Positions 6,261 to 30,128 of a stretch of DNA of 64,000 nt are shown here, piece by piece. Position 1 is the first letter of the stretch. Each line of letters opens with the position of its first letter. The position numbers were made by a program, and so were the translations under genes. The notes under the pieces are model-generated. The model was not told the origin of the DNA, did not search any database, and worked only from the letters and a program-made list of their open reading frames with translations. This DNA comes from an uncultured Actinomycetes bacterium. GTDB lineage: Bacteria; Actinomycetota; UBA4738; HRBIN12. The stretch spans positions 15,274 to 79,273 of the forward strand of contig CAVTGO010000006.1 in NCBI GenBank assembly GCA_963734275.1, in the 5' to 3' direction.

Positions 6261-7835
6261 TCAACGGGAGGCGATGCGCACCGAGCCGTCAGCGCGAGGG
6301 TCGGTCGCTGCATCCATCTGACCGCCTGCACCCTTGTTGATCAACTGTCCATGACCAACTTCTTCATCAAAGTCTTCCAGCAGGACGACCGGCATGCCCG
6401 TTCGTGCAAGATCCCTCAGCAACGCCTCGCCGGCTCTCCGCTCCACATGCAGAACGTCGGTCGGTTCACCCTCTTCCAAGCCACCCACCACCCATCGAGG
6501 AGCCGCCAGGGCGTCGGCTGCGGACTCGGAGCGAAGCGTTCGCAGGAGCAATTGGAGATGGATCTGTGGCTGTGCCTTTCCTCCCATGGCTCCCTGTATG
6601 CCGACCAACTCGGTGTCTCGACGGATCATGAGCGGCATCAGGGTGTGCAACGGACGCTTACCGGGCATGAGGACGTTCGGGGAGTTGGGGTCCAGATCGA
6701 AGGAGGCGCCGCGATTGTGCAGGAGGATGCCCGTGTCGGGCTCGAGGAGGCCGGAGCCGAACGTGTGGAAGACGCTCTGGATCACGGAGGCGGCGTTGCC
6801 TTCATCGTCCGCGGTAACGACCGCAACCGTGTCACCCTTCGGGATCGCGGCTTCCGTTCCGATATCCGTTCCCGCTTCGAGGAGGGTCCGGGCGCGATCC
6901 AGAAGCTCCGCTCCATAGCGCTCAGACAGGATCTCGGCCAGCGGGACGTCCTCGAATCGAGGATCCGCGAGGTGACGATCACGATCGCGGGAGGCCAAGC
7001 GACAGATCTCGACAAGCATCGGGGCATGCCTTCCAAGCGGATCGGGGACCTCGTCGAGATGTGCGAGCGCGGCCAGGATCTCGAGGAGCACGAAGCCCTG
7101 AGAGTTCGGTCGCGTCGTGATCACTTCGACGTCTCGGTATGCGCCGGCGATCGGAGTGGTGATCTCGGTCTCGTGGTGCTCCAAGTCGTCGAGCGAAAGG
7201 GCACAGCCGAGGGCGTTGAGACCCGCGATCAGTCGTCTGCCGAGCTCACCGCCATACAGCGCGGACGCGCCATCGGCTGCGATGCTTCGAAGCGAACTCG
7301 CCAAGGATGGTTGTCGCAGCAGCTCACCTTCGGTCAGCGGCTGGCCGTTGACCGAGAATGTCGATCCCATGCCCGGATCGGATAGAAGCTCCGACGAGTT
7401 ACGCAATGCACGATCCAGCGATCTGGCGACGGGGACACCTTCAGCAGCGAACTCGATCGCGGGGGCGAGGGCGGCAGCCAGAGGAAGTCGCGCCATCCTC
7501 GCCATCGACCCCCACGCCCCCACCGCTCCAGGTACGGTGATCGGCATCGGCCCTCGCAACGGCATCTGAGGTGAGTGTCGCCGAAGCGTTTCTGGCGAGC
7601 ATGCAAGAGCTGCAGCACCCGACCCGTTGAGTGCCGTCAGCGCACCATCCGGTTGGGCAAGAAGCGCCATGATGTCGCCGCCGATGGAGCATTGGTGCGG
7701 ATAGACAACCGTCAGAGCAGCAGCGGCGGCCAGCGCTGCATCGATGGCGTTCCCCCCGTCGCGGAAGATGGCCTCGCCGGCGTCGGTAGCGAGCCGGTGG
7801 GGTGTCGCGATGGCACAGCGCACGCTCGTGCTCAC
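6261..7835 (-). CDS. ggt: Gamma-glutamyltransferase-family Ntn hydrolase (paralog 1)
   Basis: N-terminal ATPHRLATDAGEAIFRDGGNAIDAALA; catalytic Thr context GDTVAVVTADDEGNAAS...FGSG; PGKRPLHTLMP. The GTG start overlaps the upstream stop (GTGA). Confidence 0.88.
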   Translation of the reverse strand: MSTSVRCAIATPHRLATDAGEAIFRDGGNAIDAALAAAAALTVVYPHQCSIGGDIMALLAQPDGALTALNGSGAAALACSPETLRRHSPQMPLRGPMPITVPGAVGAWGSMARMARLPLAAALAPAIEFAAEGVPVARSLDRALRNSSELLSDPGMGSTFSVNGQPLTEGELLRQPSLASSLRSIAADGASALYGGELGRRLIAGLNALGCALSLDDLEHHETEITTPIAGAYRDVEVITTRPNSQGFVLLEILAALAHLDEVPDPLGRHAPMLVEICRLASRDRDRHLADPRFEDVPLAEILSERYGAELLDRARTLLEAGTDIGTEAAIPKGDTVAVVTADDEGNAASVIQSVFHTFGSGLLEPDTGILLHNRGASFDLDPNSPNVLMPGKRPLHTLMPLMIRRDTELVGIQGAMGGKAQPQIHLQLLLRTLRSESAADALAAPRWVVGGLEEGEPTDVLHVERRAGEALLRDLARTGMPVVLLEDFDEEVGHGQLINKGAGGQMDAATDPRADGSVRIASR

Positions 7836-8827
7836 CCTGGAAGGAAGTGAACTTCTGTGCCCACCCCGGCCGCGCGCGCGAGCTCAACCGCTGCTTGGGC
7901 ACAAACGAGATCCTGGATCGCTACGCCCGACGAGTCGAAGAGCGTGATCTCGGTATCGTCGGATCGCCCTTGCTTGCGGCCCGACAGAAGCTCTCCGAGC
8001 GTCGGCCCGAGATCGTCAACCTTCGCTGCACCGGCTGCAACTGCTTCCGCGAACTTCCCGTCCCCCAGTGACTCGCTCCGCCCGTCCGGAAACACCTTGG
8101 CAACCGCCATGACCTCCGGCGCGATCTCCGAACGGATCCCGAGCGCGTTGATGTGTTGCCCCGGGCGGATGTGTTCCTTCAACAGCACGCGATCGGGAGA
8201 GTTCGTCGCGGTCACGATCACGTCCGCATCCCGGGTGGCCTCCCCTACGCTGGCTACCGGGTAGGCGTCGTAACCCAATCCATCGTGGGCACGGGCTGCG
8301 AAGTCTTCGCGTCGCTGGGGTGAGCGCGAGTACACGGACACGGCTCTCAGAGCCGGACAAGCAACCGCGAAGAAGGCCAGGCTCCACCACGCGAGCACGC
8401 CGCTGCCCACCACCCCGACAGATCTCGCGTCGTCACGAGCTAGGACCTCCGTGGCCAGCGCCGCTCCCGCCGCGGTCTTCAGCGCCGTGATATGGACTCC
8501 ATCCACGATCGCCACGGGGAACCCCGACGTGTCATCGAACAGCACGATGAGTGCTCCGAGGTTCGTGCCCGACGGATTCTCGGGGAAACGGGCGACGATC
8601 TTCGAGCCGAGCGCGCGCGACTCCGGCTCGTAACCAGCAAGGATCTTCAGCCAGCCGCGGGACTCTAGCGGTGGGCGAAGCCAGAGGTTCGGAGAGAGGG
8701 TGGCGCGTTCCTCGGCCAGATCGATGAACACCCGACGCTGTTGCTCCAGAACGGTCGGCACGTCGAGGAGAGAACGCACCTCGTCGTACCCGAGAACGAG
8801 AGTCGAAGGAGCGGTCGGGTTTCCCAT
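7832..8827 (-). CDS. Ornithine cyclodeaminase / mu-crystallin family protein
   Basis: The translation is typical of the OCD family, with a Rossmann stretch VGVVGSGVLAWW. Start taken at ATG 8827 (GGGAGA upstream); the ORF extends to 8857. Confidence 0.8.
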   Translation of the reverse strand: MGNPTAPSTLVLGYDEVRSLLDVPTVLEQQRRVFIDLAEERATLSPNLWLRPPLESRGWLKILAGYEPESRALGSKIVARFPENPSGTNLGALIVLFDDTSGFPVAIVDGVHITALKTAAGAALATEVLARDDARSVGVVGSGVLAWWSLAFFAVACPALRAVSVYSRSPQRREDFAARAHDGLGYDAYPVASVGEATRDADVIVTATNSPDRVLLKEHIRPGQHINALGIRSEIAPEVMAVAKVFPDGRSESLGDGKFAEAVAAGAAKVDDLGPTLGELLSGRKQGRSDDTEITLFDSSGVAIQDLVCAQAAVELARAAGVGTEVHFLPG

Positions 8828-8946
8828 GTTTCTATCTCCCGCAACGAGTTCACGCATGGTCCGAACATGCCTGCCAAAGGGGGACGCAACGTCAAGCGAG
8901 AGCCGATCGTGGGGCGATTAGTATAGCAAGAGCTTTCGAGGCGGGA

Positions 8947-9717
8947 GTGACGACGAGCGGTTACGCGAACGGAAGTCTGGAAGGCAAGTCGGTGATCGTG
9001 ACCGGCGCGAGCTCCGGTATGGGAGCCGAGATCGCCCGTGCTATGGCTCGCGAAGGCGCCAACGTCACCATCGTCGCGCGTGACGCAACCAGGCTGCGCG
9101 ACACGGAACGAGACGTAGCAGCGACAGGTGCGACTGTAACCAGCGTGTTGGTCGACATCGCGACCGACGAGGCACCACGCCAGATCGTCGAGACAGCCGT
9201 CGGATCATTCGGCCGGATCGACGTGCTCGTGCACAGCGCCGGCATCTTCGAGCCCGTTCCCTTCGAGGAAGCGACCCTCGAGAGCTTGGACAGACAGTGG
9301 GCGGTCAATGTCCGCGCCCCGTTCGCGATATCGCAGGCGGCTCTCCCTCATATGGGCGAGGGCTCCTCGATCATCGTCATCACCTCGCTGGCCGGAAAGG
9401 TTGGGTTTCCGCAATCGACCGCATACTGCGCGACCAAAGGTGCCCAAGAACTCTTCGTGCGTTCACTAGCAACAGAGCTGGCATCACGTGGGATCCGCGT
9501 CAATGCGGTCGCTCCCGGCAATGTGCACACGGGCATGAACAACGAGACTTACGACGCCGACCCCGAGTACATGCAACGTCTCATCCAACGTACGCCTGCC
9601 AAGAGGATCGGCGAAGTCTCCGACATCGCTCCCGCAGTCGTGTTCCTCGCTTCCGATGCGGCGCGATTCATCCTCGGAGCGACGTTGGCTGTGGACGGAG
9701 GCTGGACCGCTCAGTGA
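8947..9717 (+). CDS. SDR-family oxidoreductase
   Basis: TGASSGMG cofactor motif and YCATKGA catalytic motif; NAVAPG. Confidence 0.9.
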   Translation: MTTSGYANGSLEGKSVIVTGASSGMGAEIARAMAREGANVTIVARDATRLRDTERDVAATGATVTSVLVDIATDEAPRQIVETAVGSFGRIDVLVHSAGIFEPVPFEEATLESLDRQWAVNVRAPFAISQAALPHMGEGSSIIVITSLAGKVGFPQSTAYCATKGAQELFVRSLATELASRGIRVNAVAPGNVHTGMNNETYDADPEYMQRLIQRTPAKRIGEVSDIAPAVVFLASDAARFILGATLAVDGGWTAQ

Positions 9718-9733: not shown

Positions 9734-10222
9734 TCAGGCCGTTATCTCCACATCGAGCCAGCACTCGAAGCTGTTGTTGCGCGCGAGACTCGTTACGCCG
9801 ATGGTCGCGCGGCCCCCGAGTCCGGCTTCTTCACCGAAGACATCGCGGAACAGGTCCGTGCAACCGCTCGAGACCTTATGGATGTCCGTGAACTCAGGGA
9901 CGCAGACGACGAAATTGAGCGACCGGACGATGGATCTCACCCTGTCCAGCGACCCGACCGCCAACCGGATACCGCCGAGGCAATTCAAAGCGGTCTGACG
10001 CGCGGCCTCATACCCCTGCTCGATCGTGAGATCGGCGCCCAATCTGCCCGTGTGGATGAGGACTCCATCGGGGAGCTCGGGCACGTGCCCACTCAGGGTC
10101 AAGAGATTGCCCAAGATGTGATGCGACTTCATGCTCCCGTACGTCAATCCGAAGTACGGCATCTTCGTGAAATCGGGGATCTCGAGACCCATGTCTTCAG
10201 CACGCTTCTCGAAGTCGGGCAT
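9734..10222 (-). CDS. RidA/YjgF-family (enamine/imine deaminase-like) protein
   Basis: About 160 aa, resembling the long RidA subgroup (LSGHVP...GRLGADLTIEQGYEAARQTALN...RATIGVTSLARNNSFE). Confidence 0.75.
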   Translation of the reverse strand: MPDFEKRAEDMGLEIPDFTKMPYFGLTYGSMKSHHILGNLLTLSGHVPELPDGVLIHTGRLGADLTIEQGYEAARQTALNCLGGIRLAVGSLDRVRSIVRSLNFVVCVPEFTDIHKVSSGCTDLFRDVFGEEAGLGGRATIGVTSLARNNSFECWLDVEITA

Positions 10223-10274: not shown

Positions 10275-10284
10275 TTGTATACAC
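10275..10284. promoter_or_regulatory. Candidate GntR-type operator TTGTATACAC
   Basis: A/T-rich palindromic core TGTATACA sits in otherwise GC-rich DNA, about 52 nt upstream of the RidA-like start. A CCGGG run is adjacent. Confidence 0.5.
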
Positions 10285-10428: not shown

Positions 10429-11745
10429 CTAGTCGATCAAAGGACGGAGGCGAGCGTCGGCTTCTTGGGACTTCCGGCGGATCTCAGCATTCGAGATCCG
10501 GGTGAGCTCCCGGTCTCGCACGACCACCTCACCGGCGCAGATCACATGACGAACATCGGAGGGCCGTCCGCACCAGACGATCGTATTGAGGAGGTCCTTG
10601 TCGTTGAGGGGGTCTCTGCGGTATGGCTGTAGGTGCAGACCAGTCATGTCCAGGATCGCGATATCCGCAGGGGCACCGACATCGATCAGCCCCGCCCCGG
10701 TGCCCAGGATCGACCCGGCAACCGCTGTCGCCATCTCGAAAACGTCAGCGGAGCTGAGCGCGGTGGGATCCTGGCGTGTGATGCGTTGCAGCATCGCCGC
10801 TGCGCGCATGGCAGCGAACATGTTCAGCTGGAAACCCGAAAGCATTCCGTCCGTTCCCAGCGCCACCTTGATGCCCGCATCTCGAAGATCGACCGCTCGA
10901 CAGATCCCCGATGCGAACCGCATGTTGCTCGTGGGATTGTGGACGACCGAGGTTGAGCTGGCGGCCAGCAGCTCTATCTGCTCATCGGTCAGCCAGTTGC
11001 AGTGAGCCAACAGGGTCCGTGAGGTCAGAAGCCCCGCCGCCGCGAGGCCTTCGGGTTCCGGGGTCCCCCTCTTCTCTGGGAAGGTTCGTATCTCGTACTC
11101 GCTCTCCGCCATGTGGGTGTGGATCCCCAGATCGTGCTCCCTCGCAACGGCTGCCACCTTCCCCATGCCCTCCAAACTCGTCGTCAAGGGGCTGTCGAAA
11201 CCGCACCACATCTGCACGCGCCCACCCTCTGAGCGATAGGAGGTAACCGACTCGAGGGCGGTGGTCAGGTCATCCAGATCACCTCGCTCGACACCACCAC
11301 CGTCGCCGGCAAGGGGGACGATCCCCGCACGGATCCCGAGGGCCTCTGCAGCCATCGCCGCGCCGGTGAAACGCCTCGTCATCGTGACCGCGCTCGTGAC
11401 TCCCGCAAGCAACAGCTCGCCAAGAGCAACCAGTCCTCCCACGAAGGCGTCGTCCTGCGTCATGTGCCGGGATACGAGATCCACGCGGCGGTGCCAATCG
11501 TGGACGGGCATCCCGTCGCTCAACGCTCGTCCCGGCCGGCAGTGGAGGTGCAGGTTCGCAAGTCCAGGGATCGCTACGCTGTCGGAACAGTCCAGGCGAG
11601 TATCGGCTGCTTGCCGGGAGCTGCGAGACTCGTCTATCTCGGCGATCATCCCGTCGGCCACGTAGAGATCGCAGACCACAGGATCTTCGCGAGCTCCGCG
11701 GAGCAGATGCACGTCCTCGAGGACGACGGATCGCATTCCCGCCAC
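10429..11745 (-). CDS. Metal-dependent amidohydrolase (chlorohydrolase/aminohydrolase-like)
   Basis: IPGLANLHLHC (HxH), HMAESEYE, HCNWL and GTDG motifs of the amidohydrolase superfamily. Confidence 0.85.
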   Translation of the reverse strand: MAGMRSVVLEDVHLLRGAREDPVVCDLYVADGMIAEIDESRSSRQAADTRLDCSDSVAIPGLANLHLHCRPGRALSDGMPVHDWHRRVDLVSRHMTQDDAFVGGLVALGELLLAGVTSAVTMTRRFTGAAMAAEALGIRAGIVPLAGDGGGVERGDLDDLTTALESVTSYRSEGGRVQMWCGFDSPLTTSLEGMGKVAAVAREHDLGIHTHMAESEYEIRTFPEKRGTPEPEGLAAAGLLTSRTLLAHCNWLTDEQIELLAASSTSVVHNPTSNMRFASGICRAVDLRDAGIKVALGTDGMLSGFQLNMFAAMRAAAMLQRITRQDPTALSSADVFEMATAVAGSILGTGAGLIDVGAPADIAILDMTGLHLQPYRRDPLNDKDLLNTIVWCGRPSDVRHVICAGEVVVRDRELTRISNAEIRRKSQEADARLRPLID

Positions 11746-11873: not shown

Positions 11874-13418
11874 TCACATGCCTCTCGCGATGCCGTCCTT
11901 GCGGGGATCGGAGGCTCCTACGAAGCCACCCTCGCTCCGCAGGACCATCTGAGCACCACCGGCTTCGAACCGCTTCAGTTCGGATACCTCGTGGCCCCGC
12001 GTGCCGAGCGCCTCCATGACTCGCTGGTCATAGGCAGGTTCGAAGGCAACCGAGCGCCCTGAAGTAAACCGGAACCTCGGGGCTGTTACGGCGGCGGTAG
12101 GGGACATCCCTCGATCGAAGAGGTTTCGTATCACTTGGAACTGACCCTGCGGTTGCATGAACCCTCCCACGACCCCGAGGCAGCCGAAGAACCCTCTGTC
12201 ATCGCCGAGCATCGCCGGGATGATCGTGTGGTACGGCCGCTTGCCAGGCTCGGGTCGGTTCACGTGATCCTCGTCCATGACGAACCCCGCGCCTCTGTTG
12301 TGCAGAGCGATCCCGGTACCCGGCACGACGACGCCCGAACCGAATCCCTCGTAGAGCGACTGGATCAGTGAGCAAGAGATGTCGGTGTCGGCGGTTGCCA
12401 CGTACACCGTGTCGCTCGGGTTACCGGCGTGAGCCCAACCGGCTCGGATCAGATCCACGTGTCTGCGCCTGTCGGCGAGGTACTCGGCGGATAGGAGGGC
12501 CGTCACGGGAACGTCATGGAACCGCATGTCGGTGACGAACCGATCGGCATCGGCGAACCCCATCTTCAAGGACTCGATGGCGAGGTGATCCTCAGCGATC
12601 ACGTCGGGAGACTCGAACCCTTCGTAGATCCCAAGCGCTTGAAGCGTGACCAGACCCTGCCCTGGTGGGGGCAACTCGTACACGTCGAAACCTCTGTAGC
12701 GCAGCCGAATCGGCTGGTCCCATTCGGGGCCCGACCACGAGGCCATATCGCCTGCCCGCATGGGTCCACCGGCCGCTTCCACCGTCTCTCCGATCGCTTC
12801 CCCGATCTCCCCGCGATAGAAGCAATCAGCCCCTTCGTCTGCGATGCGTCTCAGCACCTCACCGAGCGCGGGATTGGCGAATCGGTCCCCTTCCTTCGGC
12901 GCCGTCGCAGCCGGAAGGAAGGTCCGCGCAGCCTCCTCGCTCCCCTGGAGCTTCCCGACGCAGGCTGCCCACTCCTCGGCGACGAAGTGGGCGACCGGGG
13001 CGCCTTCGCGCGCCGTTCGTATGGCCGGATCGAGGATCGCCGCCAGGTCGAGGTTCCCGTGCGTCCTGACCAAGTCCTCCCAGCCGGCAACGGACCCCGG
13101 CACCGTGATCGTCCACGGTCCCGCGGTAGGCATCTGTTGGAAACCCGCTGCGTGGAGAGCCTCCATGGAGAGGCCGGCGGGTGCCGGACCGGCGGCGCTG
13201 AGGCAGACGGGAGCCCCGGCACCTTCGAGCCATACCTGAGCGAAGAGGTCTCCTCCGATACCCGTCGACCTGGGATCCACTACGGTGAGCATCGCGGCGG
13301 CGGCGACAGCCGCATCGACCGCATTTCCACCTCGCTCCCACGCGCCCAGCGCCGCCGAAGCGGCCAGCGGGTGGCTGGTCGCAACCATCCTCGGTGTCCC
13401 GTGGTTCATGGCCATCAC
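11874..13418 (-). CDS. ggt: Gamma-glutamyltransferase-family Ntn hydrolase (paralog 2)
   Basis: ATSHPLAASAALGAWERGGNAVDAAVA; SDTVYVATADTDISC...FGSG; PGKRPYHTIIP. Confidence 0.88.
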   Translation of the reverse strand: MMAMNHGTPRMVATSHPLAASAALGAWERGGNAVDAAVAAAAMLTVVDPRSTGIGGDLFAQVWLEGAGAPVCLSAAGPAPAGLSMEALHAAGFQQMPTAGPWTITVPGSVAGWEDLVRTHGNLDLAAILDPAIRTAREGAPVAHFVAEEWAACVGKLQGSEEAARTFLPAATAPKEGDRFANPALGEVLRRIADEGADCFYRGEIGEAIGETVEAAGGPMRAGDMASWSGPEWDQPIRLRYRGFDVYELPPPGQGLVTLQALGIYEGFESPDVIAEDHLAIESLKMGFADADRFVTDMRFHDVPVTALLSAEYLADRRRHVDLIRAGWAHAGNPSDTVYVATADTDISCSLIQSLYEGFGSGVVVPGTGIALHNRGAGFVMDEDHVNRPEPGKRPYHTIIPAMLGDDRGFFGCLGVVGGFMQPQGQFQVIRNLFDRGMSPTAAVTAPRFRFTSGRSVAFEPAYDQRVMEALGTRGHEVSELKRFEAGGAQMVLRSEGGFVGASDPRKDGIARGM

Positions 13419-19882: not shown

Positions 19883-19892
19883 TTGTATACGA
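19883..19892. promoter_or_regulatory. Candidate GntR-type operator, imperfect (TTGTATACGA)
   Basis: Same intergenic region, 63 bp from the perfect site. Confidence 0.4.
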
Positions 19893-21069: not shown

Positions 21070-22229
21070 GCATCGACCGCGCCTGGATGGAGCGTTTCTT
21101 GGTCGATCTGTTGCGCGCAGATACTCAGGTTCCGCTAGGAGAAACGGAGCTGGCCCCCGGCGATGCGAGGATCGTGAAGGCGATCGATGACGTGGTGATG
21201 CCTTCTATCGAGGAACTGCAACCCGATGAGGTTCGGCGTCATGACTTGGGAGACGTGGCTGTTCGCTTCGGTCCCGAGGGTGCCGACGGGCTCCTCATCC
21301 AGACATACATCGTCTCGCAGCATTCCAACCTCATGGACGATCCCAACGTCGGAACCATCGCCGACGGAGAGCTCTACGGTCTCTCCGGACCATGCGGGGT
21401 TGGTCAGGGAGCGACTCAGAACAAGGGTCCGATGGCGAGCGCGATCGCCGCGGTCCGTTCGCTGCCTCGAGATCTCAAGCAGCCCGTGTGGATCGCCGTC
21501 AACGGTGAGGGCAGGAGCTCGCACGATGGATCACGGCGCGTCATCGACGATCTGCGCCTCCGCGCCGCTCACGGGATCGTCGCCTTCGGAACGGATCTGC
21601 GCGTCTCGCTCGGCAACCGAGGGCGCGTTGACATCGAGGTTTCCGTGCGAGGTCGCTCATGCCACTCCAGCCAACCGTGGTTGGGGCTCAATCCGATCGA
21701 GGGCGCCGCGGATGTGGTCCGCGCCCTCCGGTCGGTGTCTCTGCCGGAAGCCCATCCCGAGTTGGGCGGAGTGACGATCACTCCGTACCAGGTGCGTTGT
21801 TTTCCCGTGGCCCCCCACACCATCCCGGAGAGGGTGGATATCGTCATCGATCGTCGTCTCCTCCCCGGGGAGGACCCCTCGACCGTCATCGACGACCTCC
21901 GTTCTCATCTCTCGGATGAGCAGATTGCGGAGGTTGACGTCGAAGGGGGAGCGTCGATGCTGCCGGCGGCGGTTTCCCCCGACTCACGTGTGGTGCGGCA
22001 CTTGCTCGAGGGCCTCACGTCGCAAGGACGGAGGTCGGAGACGTTCTGGAGTCTCAACACGTTCGATGCGGGTTACGCATGTTCCGTCGGCATTCCCACG
22101 CCGATGTTCGGTCCCGGGAAGCGCGACTTCACGGGTGAGGGTCTCGTGGGGACCGACGCGATCTCTGTCGATGACTGTGAAGCCGCTGCGGCCACGATCC
22201 TTCACGCGGCCATGGCGCTCTGTTCGTAG
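21066..22229 (+). CDS. M20-family metallohydrolase (ArgE/DapE/ACY1-like deacylase)
   Basis: M20-like translation. The GTG start overlaps the upstream stop (GTGA). Confidence 0.75.
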   Translation: MSIDRAWMERFLVDLLRADTQVPLGETELAPGDARIVKAIDDVVMPSIEELQPDEVRRHDLGDVAVRFGPEGADGLLIQTYIVSQHSNLMDDPNVGTIADGELYGLSGPCGVGQGATQNKGPMASAIAAVRSLPRDLKQPVWIAVNGEGRSSHDGSRRVIDDLRLRAAHGIVAFGTDLRVSLGNRGRVDIEVSVRGRSCHSSQPWLGLNPIEGAADVVRALRSVSLPEAHPELGGVTITPYQVRCFPVAPHTIPERVDIVIDRRLLPGEDPSTVIDDLRSHLSDEQIAEVDVEGGASMLPAAVSPDSRVVRHLLEGLTSQGRRSETFWSLNTFDAGYACSVGIPTPMFGPGKRDFTGEGLVGTDAISVDDCEAAAATILHAAMALCS

Positions 22230-22260
22230 GGCAGCGAAGAAGAGATCTCGGGGGCGAACC

Positions 22261-23271
22261 GTGCGATTCGGCTTTGCGCAGATCCTCAGCGAGGACTTTC
22301 GAAAGCACGTCGGGCTCGTGAGATTCGCGGAGGAGCTTGGGTTCGATCACGCATGGATCACCGACCAGACGTTCTATCGCGATCCCTACGTGATCCTGGG
22401 GTTGGCCGCTCAGGCCACCGAACGGATCGCGCTTGGGATCGGGGTTACCAACCCCTACACGAGACATCCTGCGATGACCGCGAGAGCGGTCGCGACCTTG
22501 CATGAAGCCGCGCCCGGCCGGATCCACCTCGGGATCGGCGCAGGCAACCGCCGGGAGCTCCTGAGTCCGCTGGGGATCGATGGCTCCCACGATTCCGAGC
22601 GCTGTCGGGAAACCCTCGAGATCGTTCGCCGCCTTCTTACCGGCACGATGACGACCTACGTGGGCGATCATTATGGCGTTCGAGATGTCGAGCTTCGAAC
22701 GGCTGCGGCGCCGGAGGTCCGCTTGTATATCGGGGGCCGTGGCTCGCGCATCCTTCAGGCTGCGGGCGAAGTGGCCGACGGAGTCATCATCGGTGGACTG
22801 TCTACCGCCGCGGGCATGCGCTATGTATGGGATCACGTCGGCGCTGGAGGGAAGCGCGCGAAGCGCGACCTCGGTGAGTTGGAAGTCGTCTGCTGGATCA
22901 GCTGTTACCTCACCGAGCGCCCTGCGGCCAAACGCGAGGCGATCAAACCGTGGATCGCCCACTTCGTCGGTGAGGCACCTCGTGGAGTATTGGAGGCCAT
23001 CGAGGTGTCGGACGGGGTCGTGCAAGCGATCAAGTCGATGTATCTGCAGGGCGGCAGCACCGCGGCCGCCCCGTACGTTACCGAGGAGTGCATCGACGCC
23101 TTCAGCTTGATCACGGAGCCCGACAAGGGGGCAGATCGGATCGATGCTCTGAGCCGGGCGGGGGTGACGCAGTTCTGCATGCTGCTACCGATCGGGTCGG
23201 TCGACGACCACCGAAAGCAGCTAGAGGAGTTCGCCGAAGTCGTCTTCCCCAGATTCGCCGACAAGCGTTAA
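22261..23271 (+). CDS. LLM-class oxidoreductase (methylene-H4MPT-reductase-like)
   Basis: From GTG 22261: VRFGFAQILSE...LGFDHAWITDQTFYRDPY...GIGVTNPYTRHPAMTA. The longer ORF from 21916 overlaps the M20 gene and is Arg-rich. Confidence 0.8.
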   Translation: MRFGFAQILSEDFRKHVGLVRFAEELGFDHAWITDQTFYRDPYVILGLAAQATERIALGIGVTNPYTRHPAMTARAVATLHEAAPGRIHLGIGAGNRRELLSPLGIDGSHDSERCRETLEIVRRLLTGTMTTYVGDHYGVRDVELRTAAAPEVRLYIGGRGSRILQAAGEVADGVIIGGLSTAAGMRYVWDHVGAGGKRAKRDLGELEVVCWISCYLTERPAAKREAIKPWIAHFVGEAPRGVLEAIEVSDGVVQAIKSMYLQGGSTAAAPYVTEECIDAFSLITEPDKGADRIDALSRAGVTQFCMLLPIGSVDDHRKQLEEFAEVVFPRFADKR

Positions 23272-23289: not shown

Positions 23290-23505
23290 CTAGGTATGGT
23301 CTTCGCCTCCCGCTTCAGCATCCTTGTCGATGGCCAGGACTCCCCCCGTCGCCCAATCCTCGCGCGGGTAGTCCTGGATCACGACCTGCAGGCTCTCCCG
23401 AGTTATGCCGGCGTGCTCCTCTACCGCGTCGGTGATCGCCCTCGCCAGGTCACGCTTCTGCTCGACGGTCCGCCCTTCCCATAGCATCACGATCACGACC
23501 GCCAT
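23290..23505 (-). CDS. 4-oxalocrotonate tautomerase family protein
   Basis: 71 aa with the typical pattern GRTVEQKRDLARAITDAVEEHAGI...VVIQDYPREDWATGG. Confidence 0.8.
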   Translation of the reverse strand: MAVVIVMLWEGRTVEQKRDLARAITDAVEEHAGITRESLQVVIQDYPREDWATGGVLAIDKDAEAGGEDHT

Positions 23506-23555: not shown

Positions 23556-24809
23556 TCATTCCCGATCCCTTTCAAGAGGGTCGGCCCCGGGCGGTACGCC
23601 CTTCATTTCTGCCTGACCTTCAGTCGTTGACGAGGATCGCAGCTCGTGATCCAACCTGCGCAGCGGAGACATCATCGGAGCAAGGGCAACGCCCACAACG
23701 GCCATGACCAGAAAGGCCACTTGCAGGGAGGAAGCGGCGACGCACGCCGCGACTGCGACCGGCGATGACAGCTTGCCAAGGTTCCGAGCCGTTTGACTGA
23801 CGGATACCATGCCAGCGCGCAGGTGCGACCTGGCGGTGTGACTCGCGTACATGTCCGAGAGGACCGCCAGCACCCCATCCCCGACCCCGTAGATAGCAGC
23901 GCCGGCAAGTGCCCACCGCCAGTCTGGGGCAAGAGCGAAGACGACGATGGAGGTCGCGATCCCTAAGAAGCTTCCTAGGACCGCCGCGGACGGGCGAACC
24001 CTTCGGATGATCGCGGGGACTCGCGTAGTCGTCAGAAGGGTGACGACAGCGGCCAGAGATATGACGAGCCCCACCTGCGTCACGGAAGCATCCCGTTCCT
24101 TGACGAGGAGGATGGGAAGGTAGCCAAGCATCACGAACTTGAAGAAGAAGCGGCCGAACTGCGCAAGGAGAGTCGTCGACAGGCTAGGTTCGGTACGCAG
24201 TACGCGAGAGAGGTCTCGAGCGTAGTGCCGTTCTCCACCCAGATACGTGCGCGACTCGTCCATGATCATGAAGGACAGGATGGCGAGCGGGATCGTCACG
24301 GCCTGCATGAAAAGAGGAGCCCTCCATGAGATCCCCACCACCAAAGCACCCACGATGGGCAGAACGACGTCGCCGGCGGCGAGGAAGGAGTTCCTCCCGA
24401 CGAACGCTCGGATCCTCTGGGGCCCGCTGAACTCCGCCCCTAACAGGGTGATCGTCAGCGGCAGTACCGCCGCGAAACAGCTCCCCTGAACGGCTCGCAT
24501 CGCTAGCAGCAGCGGAAAGCTGGTGGTGATCCCCTCGATGATCGCCGCAACACCGGAGGCCGTGAGAGCGACACAGAAGAGAAGGCGTCTCCCGACAAGG
24601 TCCCCCAGGATGCCCAGCGGAACAGCGAGGAAGACGCCCGGAAGTACGTAGGCCGTGGTGACCAACCCGATCCGGCTGTCGCTGAGCCCGAGCTGGCGCT
24701 GCAATTCGGGGAGGGCGGGCGCCACAGCTTGGATCCCAAGGGTCATCCCGACGCCTCCCAACGAGATCACCGCTATGAAGGTCCTCGGGCCGACTCTCCG
24801 GACCGTCAT
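23556..24809 (-). CDS. MFS transporter
   Basis: 12-TM-like hydrophobic profile and the MFS loop motif GDLVGRR. Confidence 0.85.
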   Translation of the reverse strand: MTVRRVGPRTFIAVISLGGVGMTLGIQAVAPALPELQRQLGLSDSRIGLVTTAYVLPGVFLAVPLGILGDLVGRRLLFCVALTASGVAAIIEGITTSFPLLLAMRAVQGSCFAAVLPLTITLLGAEFSGPQRIRAFVGRNSFLAAGDVVLPIVGALVVGISWRAPLFMQAVTIPLAILSFMIMDESRTYLGGERHYARDLSRVLRTEPSLSTTLLAQFGRFFFKFVMLGYLPILLVKERDASVTQVGLVISLAAVVTLLTTTRVPAIIRRVRPSAAVLGSFLGIATSIVVFALAPDWRWALAGAAIYGVGDGVLAVLSDMYASHTARSHLRAGMVSVSQTARNLGKLSSPVAVAACVAASSLQVAFLVMAVVGVALAPMMSPLRRLDHELRSSSTTEGQAEMKGVPPGADPLERDRE

Positions 24810-24923: not shown

Positions 24924-25847
24924 CTACGCAACTGCCTGGACGCGGAACGTGTCACCGACAGAGATGCCGAGCTCAGTGGCGAGATCCCCTGCCGGCTCCT
25001 TTTCGCGTCGTTCACCTCGCATGCGTCCGACAAGAACTGCCCCACCATGCGCGGCAACGACTACTCCCTCACCTGAGATGGCGAGCACTTCACCTGGTTC
25101 CCCATGGCCGTCGACCAGCGCGGCATCGAAGATATCCACGCGCTTCCCCTTGATGGTGCCCCACGCTCCGGGCGCGGGGTCGGCCGCACGGATCTTGGCG
25201 AAGACGTCGGCGATCTGTTGATCCCAATCGAGCTCCGCGATCGACTTGTCGTACCAGGACTCGTAGGAACCGGCGTCGAGATCCTGCCCGTGCTTGAGGA
25301 GCACTCCCGCCTTCACCAGGTCGAGGCTCTCCATCATCGCGTCCACACCCATCGGGAAGAGCTTCTTGAAGTAGACGTCTCCGACGGTCTCGCTCGGTCC
25401 GATCTCGCAGGTCTTCTGCAGCAAGATCGGTCCCTCGTCCAAGCCTTCGTTTGGCCAGAAGATGGTGAGCCCCGTCATCGTGTCTCCGACGGAGATCGCC
25501 CAGTTGACCGAGGAGGGCCCTCGGTGCAGCGGGAGCAACGAGGGATGGTATTGGAACGTGCCGAACCTGGGCGCGTTCAGGACCGGCTCAGGCACAGGCA
25601 GCAGGACGTACGCCATCATGCAGATGTCTGCTTCCAGGGACTCCATCAGCTGCAGCGCCTCCGGAGTCTTCCAAGACGTCGGCAGGTACAAGGGCAGGCC
25701 CGCCTCTCTCGCGAGAGCAACGAGCGCGTCTTCTCCGGCTTCGCCTTCCGGTGCAGAACAGACCGCGACGACGTTGTCGCCACGATGCAACAACCTTTCG
25801 AGCACCGCCTTACCGAAGGCCCGCTGGCCGTGAACGACTAGCCGCAT
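24924..25847 (-). CDS. Formyltransferase-family protein (Fmt / 10-formyl-THF-utilising fold, N- and C-terminal domains)
   Basis: FQYHPSLLPLHRGPSSVNWAI and TGLTIFWPNEGLDEGPILLQ match the formyl_trans_N catalytic core (N..H..D pattern). Confidence 0.8.
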   Translation of the reverse strand: MRLVVHGQRAFGKAVLERLLHRGDNVVAVCSAPEGEAGEDALVALAREAGLPLYLPTSWKTPEALQLMESLEADICMMAYVLLPVPEPVLNAPRFGTFQYHPSLLPLHRGPSSVNWAISVGDTMTGLTIFWPNEGLDEGPILLQKTCEIGPSETVGDVYFKKLFPMGVDAMMESLDLVKAGVLLKHGQDLDAGSYESWYDKSIAELDWDQQIADVFAKIRAADPAPGAWGTIKGKRVDIFDAALVDGHGEPGEVLAISGEGVVVAAHGGAVLVGRMRGERREKEPAGDLATELGISVGDTFRVQAVA

Positions 25848-25964: not shown

Positions 25965-27242
25965 CTACTCGGTCACCATGGGCGGTGGTTCGCCAACAGC
26001 ACCGGATGCCTTGATCTCCTGGAGCTCGCTCTCGGAAACACCGAGCACATCACTGAGGATCTCGTCCGTGTGCTCGCCGAGCAACGGGGCCCGCGCTACT
26101 TCCGTCGAGCTATCTGAGAGCTTGATGGGATTCCCCACAGACACGTACGTACCCCGCTTCGGATGCTCCACCTCGACGATGGTGCCGGTCGCGCGCAAAG
26201 CCTCGTCCTCGGCGAGTTCCTTCATCGAAAGAACCGGCCCGCACGGGATATCGACCGCGCTACATATGTCCATCACCTCGAACTTCGTCTTGGTCTTGGT
26301 CCACCCCTCTATCTCGTCGAATATCTGAGCAAGCTTGTCCAAGCGAGCGGCCGGAGTTGCGTACCCTGGATCGCTGACCCACTCGGGCTTCCCGATCACA
26401 TCGCAGATCTTGTCCCAGACCGGTGCTTGGGTGATGAAGTACACGTAGGCGTTGGGGTCGGTGTCCCATCCCTTGCACTTGAGGATCCATCCAGGCTGGC
26501 CTCCTCCGGAATCGTTCCCTGCCCTCGGTACTGCCTCATCGAATGGGATACGGCGGCCGAATTGGCTGTATTCCCTGAGAGGCCCACGTTCCAGTCGCTG
26601 CTGATCGCGCAGCTTGACCCGGCACAAGTTCAGCACGCCATCCTGCATGGCCGCTTGCACCCTCTGGCCGCGCCCTGTGATCTGGCGTTGGAACAGCGCG
26701 ACAACGATCCCGAGCGCCAGGTTCAGTCCCGTGCCGGAATCAGCGATCTGCGCACCCGAGACCGTGGGTGGTCCATCGAGAAACCCGGTCGTCGACGCGG
26801 CACCGCCCGCGCATTGGGCGATGTTCTCGTACACCTTGTACTCCTGATACGGACCTTGGCCGAATCCCTTCACCGATGCCATGATCATCCGTGGGTTCAG
26901 CTCTTGGATGCGCTCCCAACCGAAACCCATGCGGGCAAGCGCGCCCGGTGCGAAGTTCTCGACCAGCACGTCGCAGTGCTTCACGAGACGTTCCAAGATC
27001 TGCTTACCGGTCTCGTTCTTGGTATCGAGCGTGATGGAGCGCTTGTTGTGATTGAGCATCGTGAAGTAGAGACTGTCCACGTCTGGGATGTCGCGGAGCT
27101 GTGCCCGCGTTGCATCCCCTACCCCGGGTCGTTCGACCTTGATGACGTCTGCCCCGAACCAGGCCAGCAGTTGCGTGCATGCTGGCCCTGACTGGACGTG
27201 GGTAAAGTCGAGGATGCGAACGCCGGTGAGTGCCTTGTCCAT
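25965..27242 (-). CDS. frc: Formyl-CoA:oxalate CoA-transferase
   Basis: Long stretches match my recollection of Oxalobacter Frc: [126 protein letters not shown] 27242 has GGAGGA upstream. Confidence 0.9.
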
Positions 27243-27347
27243 CCTGTCCTCCAGCACATTCTCGTGGTTGTCCCAGTGCGCCCATGATCGGTCGTGATCG
27301 CGACCCTTCGAGTACGCGTCATCGGCGTGAGGGTTGCGCGTGTCCGA

Positions 27348-29093
27348 TCACTTGTACATCGTTTGCGCCTTCGTGCCGGGGGCGTACTCGCGAGGGTCAA
27401 CCCAGATATTCACTACGGCCGACTTGCCGGTCTTGTCGATCTGTTGTCTGGCACGTTGGAGAGCAGGCTGGATCTCAGCAGCCTCGCGCACCTCTTCGCC
27501 GAAACCACCGAGCATCTCCGCGAAACGTGAGAATGGCACGTCGCCGAGCTGGTTGCCGACGCTGCCGCGCTCTTCGCCGTACTTCGAGATCTGTCCATAT
27601 CGGATCTGGTTCATCGCCGAGTTGTTGCCGATGACCGCCAGGAAGGGGGCGTTGAAGCGATTGGCGGTCTCGATGTCGAAGGCCGTCATTCCGAAGGAAC
27701 CGTCTCCGTAATAGCAGAGCACTTCCTTGTGTGGGTGCGCCAGCTTTGCCGCCAGCGCGAATCCGGTCCCAACTCCGAGCGACCCGAGCGCGCCCGGATC
27801 CATCCAGCCGCCAGGCTGGCGTGGGCGAACGGCCTGTGCCGAGATGGTAACGACATCACCACCATCCCCGATATAGATCGTGTCCTCGATCATGAACTCG
27901 TTGAGCTCGTAGGCCACACGATATGGGTGGATCGGTGACGCGTCGGATCTGAGGAGGGGCATGATCCTCTCGAGGGCGAGCGCCTCAGCCTGACGAAGCT
28001 GCTCCATCCACTGCTTGCGTGCGAGGCGCTTGTCCTCATCGATCATCTCGGAGGCCGCCTGGAGTACTGCACCCAGGATCGCACCTGGATCGCCGACGAG
28101 ACCCAATGAGATGTCACGGTTCTTTCCGACGGTTCGATAGTCCCGGTCGATCTGGACCAATATCGCGCCGTCGGAGATGCGCTTGCCGTATCCCATGCGG
28201 AAGTCGAACGGCGTTCCCACGACCACGATCACGTCGGCGTCCTTGAAGGCCATCGAGCGTGTGCGGTCGAAGTGATGCTCGTCTCCGGGAGGGAGCAGAC
28301 CTCGGCTGGCTCCGTTGAAGTAGCCGGGGATGTCGAGACCGCGCAGCAGAGCAACCGCTTGCTCATGGCCGCGCGAGATGAAGACCTGTTGCCCGTAGAG
28401 GGCAGCGGGCCGCTCGGCGTTGACCAGGATCTTGGCCAGTTCCACGATGTCGGCCGGGTCGCCCACAGACTTGACGGAGGCTCGATAGGCCCCCGGCTTC
28501 GGGATGACGGCCTTGTCGATCGGGATCTCACGGTCGAGCACGTCGCGGGGGATCTCCAAGAAGGACGGTCCGAAGGCCCCGCTGAAGCACTCGCGTGCTG
28601 CCATGGAGACCATGTCGGCGATGCGTTCGGTCGAGGGAACGGTGGAGGCGAACTTGGTGATCGGCCTCATCAGGTCTACATGCGGAAGATCCTGCAAGGA
28701 ACCCATCCTGTGCTGAGTGAGCGCTCCCTGGCCGGCGATATGGAGTACGGGACTCTCCGAACGGAAGGCCGTTGCGATCCCAGTGACGGCGTTCGTACAG
28801 CCGGGTCCGGCAGTCGTGACGACGCAGCCCAGGCGGCCCGTCTGGCGTGCGTAACCATCGGCTGCGTGGGCAGCTACTTGCTCGTGGCGGACGTCCACGA
28901 TGCGGATGCCTTCGTCGATGCACCCGTTATAGATGTCGATGATGTGTCCACCGCAGAGCGTGAAGATGGTGTCGACGCCTTCATTCTTCAGCGCCTTAGC
29001 CACCAGCCGACCGCCCGAGACGACGTCACCGCGCGTGCCGTTCCTTGCGAGCGATCCTTCGGTCGTACTCGAAGTGGCCCGCTCCCGTGACAT
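27348..29093 (-). CDS. oxc: ThDP-dependent decarboxylase, probable oxalyl-CoA decarboxylase
   Basis: Acetolactate-synthase-like ThDP fold (RHEQVAAHAADGYAR, TAGPGCTNAVTG, GDGSFG...NNS ThDP motif). It lies immediately upstream of frc in the same operon. The product assignment rests partly on this context. Confidence 0.75.
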   Translation of the reverse strand: MSRERATSSTTEGSLARNGTRGDVVSGGRLVAKALKNEGVDTIFTLCGGHIIDIYNGCIDEGIRIVDVRHEQVAAHAADGYARQTGRLGCVVTTAGPGCTNAVTGIATAFRSESPVLHIAGQGALTQHRMGSLQDLPHVDLMRPITKFASTVPSTERIADMVSMAARECFSGAFGPSFLEIPRDVLDREIPIDKAVIPKPGAYRASVKSVGDPADIVELAKILVNAERPAALYGQQVFISRGHEQAVALLRGLDIPGYFNGASRGLLPPGDEHHFDRTRSMAFKDADVIVVVGTPFDFRMGYGKRISDGAILVQIDRDYRTVGKNRDISLGLVGDPGAILGAVLQAASEMIDEDKRLARKQWMEQLRQAEALALERIMPLLRSDASPIHPYRVAYELNEFMIEDTIYIGDGGDVVTISAQAVRPRQPGGWMDPGALGSLGVGTGFALAAKLAHPHKEVLCYYGDGSFGMTAFDIETANRFNAPFLAVIGNNSAMNQIRYGQISKYGEERGSVGNQLGDVPFSRFAEMLGGFGEEVREAAEIQPALQRARQQIDKTGKSAVVNIWVDPREYAPGTKAQTMYK

Positions 29094-29244: not shown

Positions 29245-29254
29245 CTGTATACAA
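29245..29254. promoter_or_regulatory. Candidate GntR-type operator CTGTATACAA (site 1 of a tandem pair)
   Basis: About 150 nt upstream of the oxc start, between oxc and the GntR gene. ACCCGG follows. Confidence 0.5.
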
Positions 29255-29268: not shown

Positions 29269-29278
29269 CTGTATACAA
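29269..29278. promoter_or_regulatory. Candidate GntR-type operator CTGTATACAA (site 2 of a tandem pair)
   Basis: Identical 10-mer 24 bp from site 1. Confidence 0.5.
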
Positions 29279-29432
29279 CCTGAGTGCCAAACTGTCCAGA
29301 GGTTCCGTTTCAGAGGTCCCCCGAAGCTCCGAGAACCAAGGGCGGTCACTGCGCCCGCCCCGCCCGCCATCTGCTGATAGCGACGATGTGGGTTGCCGAC
29401 GAGACCGCTCAGGGAAAGGTTGCTAGGGCGGT

Positions 29433-30128
29433 CTAGCTCGACGACGTTCCCCGGATCGGGGCAGGTTCACCCGAAACCAGATGCTTCAACAGCATCGCTT
29501 GCGTCGTTCGGCTGTGCATCACCATGAGTTCTCGCGCTCGGTCGGAGTCCCGGCGTCGGAGAGCCTCAAGGATCTTGCGGTGCTCCTTCCAGGATGAGGC
29601 CCTGCGAACGGAGGCCACCTCCTCGAAGTGCCAGCGGACCTTCTTCTCGAGGTCGATGAGCAGCTCGGTGAGGTGGTTGTTGTGAGCGGCGGAAAACAAC
29701 GCTCCGTGGAAGTCAGAGTTGAGCTTCGCCAACTCCTTGGGGAACGGCTCCGATGCCGCCATCTCGTCACCCCGTTCAAGGATCTTGGCCAGCCGGGCGA
29801 GCTCCTCGTCGGTCGAGCGCTCCGCAGCGAGTCCGGCAGCGAGCTCTTCGAGAGCCTCCCGCACCTCGAAGGCCTCGCGAGCTTCTTGGACGGAGAAGTA
29901 CCGCACGTGTGCCCCGGAGTGGGGGTGGAGCTCCACCCAACCCGCCTGAGCCAACATCTTCACCGCTTCACGAACCGGTGTTCTGGATACACCCAGCTGG
30001 GCGGCAAGGGTCTCCTCGATCAGGTGCGTGCCGGGGGGAAGACTCCGGTCGAGGACCGCCGCCTCCAGCCACTCGAAGATCCACTGGGGCAATGGCCCCC
30101 TGTCGTTCCTCGCTCGCTCTTGCGCCAT
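29433..30128 (-). CDS. GntR-family transcriptional regulator, FadR/FCD subfamily
   Basis: From ATG 30128 (GAGAGGAAGAGGG upstream): winged HTH LIEETLAAQLGVSRTPVREAVKMLAQAGWV, followed by an all-helical FCD-like domain. Confidence 0.88.
   Translation of the reverse strand: MAQERARNDRGPLPQWIFEWLEAAVLDRSLPPGTHLIEETLAAQLGVSRTPVREAVKMLAQAGWVELHPHSGAHVRYFSVQEAREAFEVREALEELAAGLAAERSTDEELARLAKILERGDEMAASEPFPKELAKLNSDFHGALFSAAHNNHLTELLIDLEKKVRWHFEEVASVRRASSWKEHRKILEALRRRDSDRARELMVMHSRTTQAMLLKHLVSGEPAPIRGTSSS

Follow-up and report, generated by a model that had tools for sequence, protein, structure and literature searches.

A predicted GntR-controlled regulon for a nitrogen-rich compound, linked to an oxalate module, in an uncultured actinobacterium

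The locus and the question it raises

What compound would an uncultured actinobacterium take apart with a dense run of C-N hydrolases, luciferase-like oxidoreductases (LLM) and oxalate genes, and do these genes belong together? The run lies in 64,000 nucleotides of an uncultured Actinomycetes bacterium (contig CAVTGO010000006.1 of assembly GCA_963734275.1, positions 15,274 to 79,273), hereafter the window, to which all coordinates given without a locus name refer. An earlier note, made from the sequence alone, had read positions 6261-30128 as one catabolic unit. Open reading frame (ORF) listing together with Pfam and NCBIfam profile searches found all the gene families it had named at their positions. 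As delimited here, the block comprises 22 genes, 21 in that span and a flanking Amidohydro_2 gene. They encode two gamma-glutamyltransferase-family hydrolases (GGT1 and GGT2), an amidase, an Amidohydro_1 protein, LLM1-3, an M20-like protein, an ornithine cyclodeaminase/mu-crystallin family protein (OCD), a short-chain dehydrogenase/reductase (SDR), a Rid-superfamily protein, a tautomerase, an ABC importer with its substrate-binding protein (SBP), a transporter of the major facilitator superfamily (MFS) and a GntR/FCD regulator. The set is completed by a triad of a formyltransferase (Fmt-like), a formyl-CoA:oxalate CoA-transferase (Frc) and a thiamine diphosphate (ThDP) enzyme.

We propose that the block is a conserved, GntR/FCD-controlled catabolic regulon of an Acidimicrobiia-like actinobacterium that takes up and breaks down a nitrogen-rich compound and clears the oxalate left over from it. 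For this model as a whole, regulon and pathway jointly, we put the probability at roughly 0.55.

Conservation of the block in related loci

Contig k141_2447839 (loci L092 and L095) carries 20 of the 22 block genes at 61-84% identity (40% for GntR) in a reshuffled order. It reads GntR, LLM2-M20, Octopine_DH, LLM3, MFS-LLM1-ABC-SBP and Fmt-Frc-ThDP, followed by Amidohydro_1-GGT2, malic enzyme-Asparaginase_2-SDR-Rid-OCD-GGT1 and amidase. The Fmt-Frc-ThDP triad sits in the middle of this cluster, and the predicted operator described below lies upstream of its ThDP gene, as it does in the window. Because the linkage survives rearrangement and the operator is shared, there is strong evidence that the block is one functional unit that includes frc and the ThDP gene resembling oxalyl-CoA decarboxylase (Oxc), as the earlier note had supposed.

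A synteny search in relatives, which that note had proposed, found the gene set conserved across several lineages. The OCD-GGT1 pair is kept in L003, L004, L095 and the P0002 contig, whose GGT1 is 80% identical to that of the window and whose genes run LLM-M20-LLM-LLM-ABC-SBP-Rid-SDR-OCD-GGT-amidase. SDR relatives (74-87% identical) adjoin OCD, and Rid homologues (72-91% identical) occur in L003, L004, L090, L091 and L095. The LLM1-ABC order is kept in L091 and L092, and the LLM2-M20 pair in L006-L009, L090 and L092. A scan of a genome collection with the M20-like protein returned four loci, all in metagenome-assembled genomes (MAGs) of Actinomycetota, the closest of them an Acidimicrobiia MAG. 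A megablast comparison of the whole block with plasmids gave matches to the ThDP gene and to a short piece of the ABC genes, and to nothing else.

The oxalate triad is an accessory module of the cluster. In its place or elsewhere, L090 and L091 have genes for aminotransferases, for aldehyde dehydrogenases and for a 2-oxoacid dehydrogenase E1 accompanied by a lipoyl protein, and L008 has a split ThDP decarboxylase instead of the triad. A ThDP-dependent decarboxylation step is common to all cluster variants. Relatives also carry extra opine-type or imine reductases (Octopine_DH, AlaDH/PNT-like and imine reductase, IRED), which underline secondary-amine and imine chemistry.

A predicted operator in the block promoters

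The 8-bp palindrome TGTATACA occurs at four exact sites in the window, where 0.01 would be expected by chance, and none of 100 shuffles reached four. All four are intergenic and lie in block promoters. O1 (10276-10283) is 54 nt upstream of the Rid gene. O2 (19821-19828) lies in the divergent promoter region of LLM1 and LLM2, together with a variant that has one mismatch (O2', 19884-19891). O3 (29246-29253) and O4 (29270-29277) are placed between the GntR stop and the ThDP start. The hexamer GTATAC has five occurrences in the window, all of them between block genes: one precedes the Rid gene, two fall between LLM1 and LLM2, and two separate the GntR stop from the ThDP start. The extended 12-bp palindromic consensus, ATTGTATACAAT, has a half-site arrangement typical of GntR-type operators.

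The shared operator that the earlier note had pointed out is real, and the motif also stands ahead of homologous genes in five related metagenome contigs. It lies upstream of the Rid gene in L003 (1046), L004 (5735) and L091 (123). Across L003, L004 and L090 it stands ahead of Rid, EamA-LLM2, MFS and an aminotransferase gene, and in L091 ahead of MFS, GGT2 and Rid. L092 has it ahead of the ThDP gene (20878) and LLM1, with near-sites before LLM2 and MFS. In L008 it is found between a GntR gene 44% identical to that of the window and an ABC-GGT-OCD operon. It was not found in 80 unrelated frc-fmt loci (~800 kb).

The GntR/FCD regulator (29433-30128, minus strand; NCBIfam) is 40-44% identical to the operator-adjoining GntR proteins of L092 and L008 and 31-33% identical to those of plain oxalate operons. 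It is probably a repressor that recognises the predicted operator ATTGTATACAAT. On sequence, the operator is repeated in several promoters and lies beside the regulator gene, the pattern by which a GntR/FCD regulon can be recognised.

The oxalate module contains a non-canonical ThDP enzyme

Frc (25965-27257, minus strand) passes the equivalog cut-offs of both TIGR03253 (706.5 bits, cut-off 504.2) and NF003809 (718.1 bits, cut-off 442). With these scores, it is predicted to be a genuine formyl-CoA:oxalate CoA-transferase. The gene directly upstream encodes a ThDP enzyme (27348-29093, minus strand) that NCBIfam and PDB matches place in the family of 2-hydroxyacyl-CoA lyase (HACL) and Oxc. The earlier note had named it oxc. 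As a canonical Oxc this does not hold, since the protein reaches 217.9 bits with NF006721 against a cut-off of 557, and TIGR03254 is not among the matches listed; canonical Oxc genes in L018 and L060 score ~1000 bits. It also remains below the HACL cut-off (NF058623, 334.9 against 600 bits). Its best PDB match is the actinobacterial HACL 7pt3 (255 bits). Chains deposited as oxalyl-CoA decarboxylase/HACS (8vzk and 8vza) score 225-233 bits, and 7ayg and the solved Oxc enzymes of Oxalobacter formigenes (2c31) and Escherichia coli (2q27) score 139-184 bits.

Gene context points to an Oxc-like role, the part of the earlier claim that stands. The ThDP enzyme is 78-81% and Frc 74-76% identical to proteins encoded on Phyllobacterium and Caballeronia plasmids (ThDP genes at L001 12000-13730 and L002 11863-13599). 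Such identity across phyla is far above expectation and suggests horizontal transfer. In Phyllobacterium, the ThDP homologue (80% identical) lies between frc and the oxalate transporter gene oxlT, with one small hypothetical gene before oxlT, and gcl and a panE-like gene also adjoin it. The Caballeronia homologue adjoins frc. PGAP names the plasmid ThDP gene only as a 'thiamine pyrophosphate-binding protein'.

We furthermore collected 80 metagenome loci with the Fmt-like protein (24924-25847, minus strand; Formyl_trans_N and Formyl_trans_C) as query. Frc directly precedes Fmt in 61 of the 80. The gene before Frc is a canonical Oxc in L018 and L060 and a ThDP enzyme of the window type (75-78% identity) in L036, L038-L040, L052 and L065. 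Both types fill the same slot of an otherwise identical operon, GntR-X-Frc-Fmt-formate-tetrahydrofolate (THF) ligase (fhs). Because of this position-for-position exchange with canonical Oxc and the frc and oxlT neighbours, we infer that the ThDP enzyme is a non-canonical oxalyl-CoA decarboxylase, isofunctional with Oxc.

The Fmt-like gene is a regular member of environmental oxalate operons, and formate-THF ligase follows it in all three loci examined (L018, L038 and L060). LctF, an Fmt-like protein, makes formyl-CoA from 10-formyl-THF in lactacystin biosynthesis (PMC11730586). Given this precedent and the regular occurrence of the gene in oxalate operons, it is reasonable to suppose that the Fmt-like enzyme links formyl-CoA and 10-formyl-THF and thereby primes or drains the formyl-CoA cycle. 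The analogy has limits, since LctF serves polyketide synthase (PKS) loading, whereas the Fmt-like gene lies between frc and, in most loci, formate-THF ligase.

The module can be set beside known Frc/Oxc oxalate catabolism, as encoded by frc-oxc of O. formigenes and yfdW-yfdU of E. coli. The block likewise combines an equivalog Frc with a HACL/OXC-family ThDP gene directly upstream, and its GntR-(Oxc)-Frc layout is common to many environmental oxalate loci. It differs in that its ThDP enzyme is ~25% identical to canonical Oxc, OxlT is missing, an Fmt-like gene is added, and the whole is embedded in a regulon for a nitrogen compound.

GGT-family proteins and other hydrolases

GGT1 (6261-7835, minus strand; PF01019, 388 bits) and GGT2 (11874-13418, minus strand; PF01019, 434 bits) are 37% identical to each other, ~520 amino acids long and without signal peptides. 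Neither reaches the 358-bit cut-off of TIGR00066, the model for GGT proper (296 and 291 bits). Both retain the Thr nucleophile and the Gly-Gly pair of the oxyanion site; in GGT1, the motifs GD|T341 and GAMGG align with T391 and G483-G484 of E. coli GGT. At the gamma-glutamyl-binding positions R114, N411, Q430, D433, S462 and S463 of the E. coli enzyme, GGT1 has S, F, R, S, H and T. Every gamma-glutamyl-binding residue is therefore replaced, which argues against gamma-glutamyl chemistry for GGT1 and gives no support to the gamma-glutamyl amide that the earlier note had listed among possible substrates.

The best PDB match of the GGT1 beta subunit is HpxW (5hft_B, 132.6 bits, 41% identity), and that of GGT2 is 2nlz (402 bits). 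NRG and HT motifs are common to GGT1, GGT2, HpxW, 2nlz and 2i3o. Both proteins are thus predicted to be cytoplasmic N-terminal nucleophile (Ntn) amidohydrolases of the clade formed by HpxW and YwrD. HpxW is an oxamate amidohydrolase that releases oxalate (PMC5270733). The GGT homologues LmbA and Ant6 also release oxalic acid (PMC5519988). Because the catalytic subunit of GGT1 is closest to HpxW, the earlier idea of an oxamate- or oxalurate-type compound that yields oxalate gains some support in its oxamate part.

Compared with the Klebsiella HpxW system (PDB 5hft; hpxWXYZ of purine catabolism), GGT1 falls into the same GGT-family clade, is likewise cytoplasmic, keeps the Thr, has lost the gamma-glutamyl residues and shares the NRG and HT motifs. 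Oxalate as the HpxW product would fit the adjoining Frc and Oxc-like pair of the block. In contrast to that system, the block lacks the other urate, allantoin and oxalurate enzymes as well as a carbamoyltransferase. JGI labels some homologues with 53-64% identity to GGT1 as 'oxamate amidohydrolase'. A search of plasmid proteins with GGT1 gave matches of at most 40% identity in heterogeneous contexts. In Paraburkholderia AP028202.1 (L097, 6990-10993), a GGT homologue annotated as HpxW lies between a GntR gene and an MFS gene resembling oxlT, an independent link of an HpxW-clade hydrolase to oxalate transport.

The block has four intact C-N hydrolases. The amidase (13425-14837, minus strand; PF01425, 304 bits) shows the amidase-signature motifs GIKD, GGSSGG and GTDSGGS of the catalytic triad. 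In the Amidohydro_1 protein (10429-11745, minus strand; Pfam and NCBIfam), the HxH, HxHxxE, H and D metal motifs are readable. This TRZ/ATZ-type protein falls into the group of guanine, 8-oxoguanine and methylthioadenosine (MTA) deaminases, and its best PDB match is the MTA/S-adenosylhomocysteine deaminase 4f0r (160 bits).

F420-type oxidoreductases, an M20-like protein and imine chemistry

LLM1 (18677-19765, minus strand) is the first gene of a long minus-strand operon. LLM2 (20083-21069, plus strand) is translationally coupled to the M20-like gene, and LLM3 (~22261-23271, plus strand) follows; its start is taken from the match to the Mer models, the longest ORF beginning at 21916 and the public gene call being 336 amino acids long. 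The best NCBIfam matches of LLM1-3 are F420 classes (Mer and TIGR03619) below cut-off, with 172 of 276, 122 of 167 and 203 of 276 bits; the Mer models give LLM3 197-203 bits. Their top PDB matches are F420-dependent Mer enzymes (138 bits for LLM1). LLM1-3 are thus predicted to be Mer-like and F420-dependent.

This class assignment suggests that the LLMs are reductive and not RutA-like, because Mer-type enzymes are of the F420 class. The earlier note had drawn an analogy to the Rut pathway (RutA-G) and its oxidative ring opening. The block resembles it in bringing together an LLM, hydrolases and a Rid protein, as in a nitrogen-scavenging operon. The LLMs of the block, however, resemble Mer enzymes and not FMN monooxygenases, a flavin reductase is missing and the end products differ. 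RutA and RutB models are absent among the NCBIfam matches listed (the best 25 per protein, with the permeases, ATPase and tautomerase not scanned), and a RutD model matches only a flanking hydrolase, weakly. The analogy is not supported.

The M20-fold protein (21066-22229, plus strand) matches M20_dimer (55 bits) and Peptidase_M20 (26.9 bits). H66, D99, E133, E134, E162 and H348 of DapE are replaced by Y/I, Q, G, R, F and L. The same loss of metal ligands and general base is seen in four locus homologues (L008, L009, L090 and L092) and in most relatives, whereas YgeY and DapE keep these residues. The 'M20 deacylase' of the earlier note is not supported, since none of the five metal ligands is left and the general base is gone as well. 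The protein may be a pseudo-peptidase or carry out new chemistry. Its relatives are rare, with 83 cluster representatives at E<=1e-30 among 1.84 billion, and a PDB sequence search with it gave no match. In Bacillus subtilis, yxe/ytmI-type operons combine an LLM monooxygenase, an M20 deacetylase and an ABC importer for an amino-acid derivative. There the LLMs depend on FMN, and the M20 enzymes retain the metal site that the M20-like protein of the block lacks.

OCD (7832-8857, minus strand; PF02423, 171 bits) is predicted to be an NAD(P)-dependent imine/amine oxidoreductase. In NCBIfam it comes closest, without reaching any cut-off, to archaeal alanine dehydrogenase, iminosuccinate reductase and Pyr2C/Pip2C reductase, which places it nearer to imine reductases than to cyclodeaminases. 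The SDR (8947-9717, plus strand), transcribed divergently from OCD, matches adh_short_C2 (220 bits). The earlier note had a RidA and a 4-oxalocrotonate tautomerase (4-OT), and both assignments hold in part. The Rid protein (9734-10222, minus strand) belongs to the Rid superfamily through PF14588 (YjgF_endoribonc, 53 bits) and is not an archetypal RidA, since it matches neither PF01042 nor any NCBIfam model; the Arg of its 'GGRATIGV' motif may correspond to the RidA Arg. The tautomerase (23290-23505, minus strand) matches the family profile (PF01361, 58 bits). It starts with MAVV, so that the catalytic Pro1 is replaced by Ala; the independent public assembly (L096) agrees with the window in this, whereas relatives have MPVV. 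In L008 and L009, a tautomerase domain is fused to a glyoxalase/VOC domain.

Transport

The block encodes an ABC importer with an ATPase (17820-18617; ABC_tran), two permeases (16209-16967 and 16964-17953, the latter with an uncertain start; BPD_transp_1) and a lipoprotein SBP (14983-16116) with an IATAC lipobox, all on the minus strand. That an ABC importer is present agrees with the earlier note. Its NitT/TauT class is weakly marked, since the SBP, a distant NMT1/ThiY-like protein, reaches 16.5 bits with NMT1 (cut-off 20.5) and its close homologues are flagged NMT1 'faint'. The SBP of L008, in the same position of the ABC operon, scores 48.8 bits with NMT1; tblastn at 1e-10 detected no similarity between it and the SBP of the window. 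A PDB sequence search with the window SBP gave no match. The MFS transporter (23556-24809, minus strand; Pfam) has 36 homologues at E<=1e-40, three of them on contigs with GGT1 homologues, and appears to belong to a small family specific to this cluster type. The OxlT model did not match it.

Proposed pathway and alternatives

In the proposed pathway, the NMT1-like ABC importer and the MFS transporter would take up a carboxylated, nitrogen-rich amide, amidine or heterocycle. The guanine-deaminase-type Amidohydro_1 protein could strip off an amino group, either exocyclic or part of an amidine. C=N and C-N bonds would be reduced or oxidised by the three Mer-like LLMs, using F420H2, together with the OCD-family enzyme, the SDR and the IRED-like protein, and the amidase and the two HpxW-clade Ntn hydrolases would cut amide bonds beside a carboxylate. 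Enamine and imine intermediates may be handled by the Rid protein and the tautomerase. In this lineage at least, one or more of the hydrolases would set oxalate free from an intermediate that resembles oxamate (N-oxalyl). Frc would then form oxalyl-CoA, the non-canonical ThDP enzyme would decarboxylate it to formyl-CoA, and the Fmt-like enzyme would connect formyl-CoA to 10-formyl-THF.

A cyclic or N-substituted oxamide would be a chemically attractive substrate, which is speculation. Speculative examples are oxamide itself or an oxidised pyrazine ring from a compound of the pteridine, flavin or quinoxaline type. A more detailed version of the pathway is tentative, and we would sooner bet against it: an F420-linked Actinomycetota route for a nitrogen-rich heterocycle or amide, in which HpxW-clade enzymes open a cyclic or N-substituted oxamide, with a new Oxc isozyme, formyl exchange by Fmt and a metal-free M20 partner of an F420 LLM.

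In line with the earlier note, we found no named pathway that fits the gene combination, and full-text literature searches for it returned nothing relevant. Signature enzymes are absent for the purine/allantoin-oxalurate route, atrazine/cyanuric acid degradation, ectoine degradation, the Puu gamma-glutamyl route, and the LLM ring-cleavage clusters for pyridine and tetramethylpyrazine, and these candidates were rejected.

Several observations weigh against the catabolic model. The triad is present in two of about seven related loci, the others having the E1 or split ThDP decarboxylase, and the ThDP enzyme scores higher on the HACL model than on the Oxc model. GGT1 is just 37-41% identical to HpxW and about equally far from the uncharacterised 2nlz, and other HpxW-clade genes lie in heterogeneous contexts. 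The LLMs stay below cut-off for all family models, and the M20-like protein and the tautomerase with its Pro1-to-Ala exchange may be inactive. In a rival reading, the triad is co-located and co-regulated with the block without being fed by its pathway, so that oxalate or formate would be a separate nutrient or co-substrate and the GntR of the island would control several independent modules. In its favour, ThDP-frc-fmt is self-contained and widely mobile, it stands alone in dozens of metagenome loci, its 76-81% identity to proteobacterial copies suggests horizontal transfer, and most relatives of the nitrogen block have no triad nearby. Set against this, a second lineage has preserved the linkage through rearrangement, with the triad between block genes, and in both lineages the ThDP gene has upstream of it the block-specific operator that free-standing triads do not have. 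We regard such an uncoupled module as unlikely, while taking it seriously.

The HACL-like scores of the ThDP enzyme lead to a different chemistry, in which the CoA-transferase would activate a substrate-derived 2-hydroxy acid, the ThDP enzyme would act as a 2-hydroxyacyl-CoA lyase and yield formyl-CoA and an aldehyde (alpha-oxidation), and Fmt would pass the formyl group to THF. Its best PDB match is such a lyase, ahead of 2c31, 2q27 and 7ayg, the HACL model outscores that of Oxc (335 against 218 bits), and the Fmt-like gene is present. This route is improbable in our view, as the partner Frc passes a strict oxalate equivalog model, the same ThDP subfamily adjoins oxlT, gcl and a panE-like gene in Phyllobacterium and replaces canonical Oxc position for position, and the HACL cut-off is missed just as the Oxc cut-off is. 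We give very little credence to a biosynthetic cluster, for example for an alkyl-proline- or opine-type metabolite made with a GGT homologue and an F420 LLM, as for the precursors of lincomycin and anthramycin. GGT homologues and F420-type LLMs do co-occur in 4-alkyl-proline biosynthesis, where LmbA or Ant6, oxalic-acid-releasing hydrolases of the GGT family, accompany LmbY-type F420 LLMs in actinobacteria (PMC5519988), and relatives of the block have EamA, MFS exporter-like, Octopine_DH and IRED genes. LmbA and Ant6, however, are biosynthetic and cut a C-C bond, and their Thr (T421/T430) lies ~80-90 residues further from the N-terminus than Thr341 of GGT1; both GGTs of the block are of the HpxW/2nlz type. 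Furthermore, the cluster has no non-ribosomal peptide synthetase, PKS, dioxygenase or methyltransferase gene, and besides an ABC importer and its lipoprotein SBP it holds the four intact C-N hydrolases, a module for oxalate disposal and a GntR/FCD regulator.

Extent of the block and its surroundings

The catabolic block that we favour coincides with a change in base composition. GC content falls from ~70% to 61-65% at ~6.2 kb and rises again at ~31.2 kb, which makes the block a compositional low-GC island of ~25 kb. Direct or inverted repeats were sought on either side of the island, with matches no better than chance, and no tRNA gene lies at its edge, the nearest (923-1131) being ~5 kb away. 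This is a tandem of tRNA-His and tRNA-Lys; a tRNA-Leu gene lies at 46892-46976, also away from the island boundaries.

The genes are arranged in transcription units. OCD and GGT1 form a minus-strand unit (8857 to 6261), and SDR stands alone on the plus strand. A long minus-strand run (19765 to 9734) holds LLM1, the ABC ATPase, the two permeases, SBP, amidase, GGT2, Amidohydro_1 and Rid. LLM2, the M20-like gene and LLM3 make up a plus-strand run (20083-23271), and Amidohydro_2, GntR, ThDP, Frc, Fmt-like, MFS and tautomerase a minus-strand run (31214 to 23290). Overlaps of 4 nt join OCD to GGT1, one permease gene to the other and LLM2 to the M20-like gene, and GGT1 is translationally coupled to OCD.

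On the right, the block extends past GntR to the Amidohydro_2 gene (30324-31214, minus strand; PF04909, 105 bits), which encodes a protein of the decarboxylase/hydrolase type. Its gene, 24 nt upstream of GntR, is still part of the low-GC island, and an Amidohydro_2 gene also adjoins the amidase on the P0002 contig. Divergent from this run is a gene for an IRED/beta-hydroxyacid-dehydrogenase-like reductase (31400-32257, plus strand; the public gene call matches NAD_binding_2 and RedAm-like_C of Pfam). An L091 gene that adjoins MFS is 55% identical to it, and it is probably an outlying member of the block.

On the left, GGT1 is followed on its own strand, after 33 nt, by an alpha/beta-hydrolase gene (5199-6227). 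This gene is probably outside the block because its GC content (70%) is that of the flanks and related loci have no homologue. Three class-III aminotransferase genes and another LLM lie just past the left end of the window (window 1-810 and upstream; L005 16560-21110), and genes similar to these accompany the block in L003, L004, L090 and L091.

The same contig is present in the public record ENA ERZ25039588 (contig_18439, 878 kb; loci L005 and L096), which is 0.25-0.3% divergent with 7-12 indels. GGT1, the amidase, LLM1 and a permease are split or truncated in public gene calls because of these indels. An exact-sequence look-up of GGT2 and the ThDP protein gave no match.

Further to the right, the window encodes a protein with a LigD primase-polymerase domain (35307-36602, 270 bits). 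Long overlapping ORFs on both strands (1038 and 755 amino acids, 41611-44897) have no Pfam match. In the region 48895-54761, which is unrelated to the block, a gene for a NuoF-like FMN/Fe-S subunit precedes another ABC importer, one of the SBP_bac_8 type that has a MalK-like ATPase.

Implications

The block represents a conserved, operator-marked regulon in poorly known environmental actinobacteria, for which literature searches matched no described pathway. The 'GGT' annotation in such clusters should not be taken to imply gamma-glutamyl chemistry. An M20-fold protein without a metal site is coupled to an F420-type LLM in all observed loci. If its predicted function is correct, the ThDP enzyme represents a second, unannotated type of oxalyl-CoA decarboxylase that is also encoded on Phyllobacterium and Caballeronia plasmids. 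Likewise, if its proposed role is true, the formyltransferase that is near-constant in environmental oxc-frc operons beside formate-THF ligase may prime or drain the formyl-CoA cycle of oxalate catabolism.

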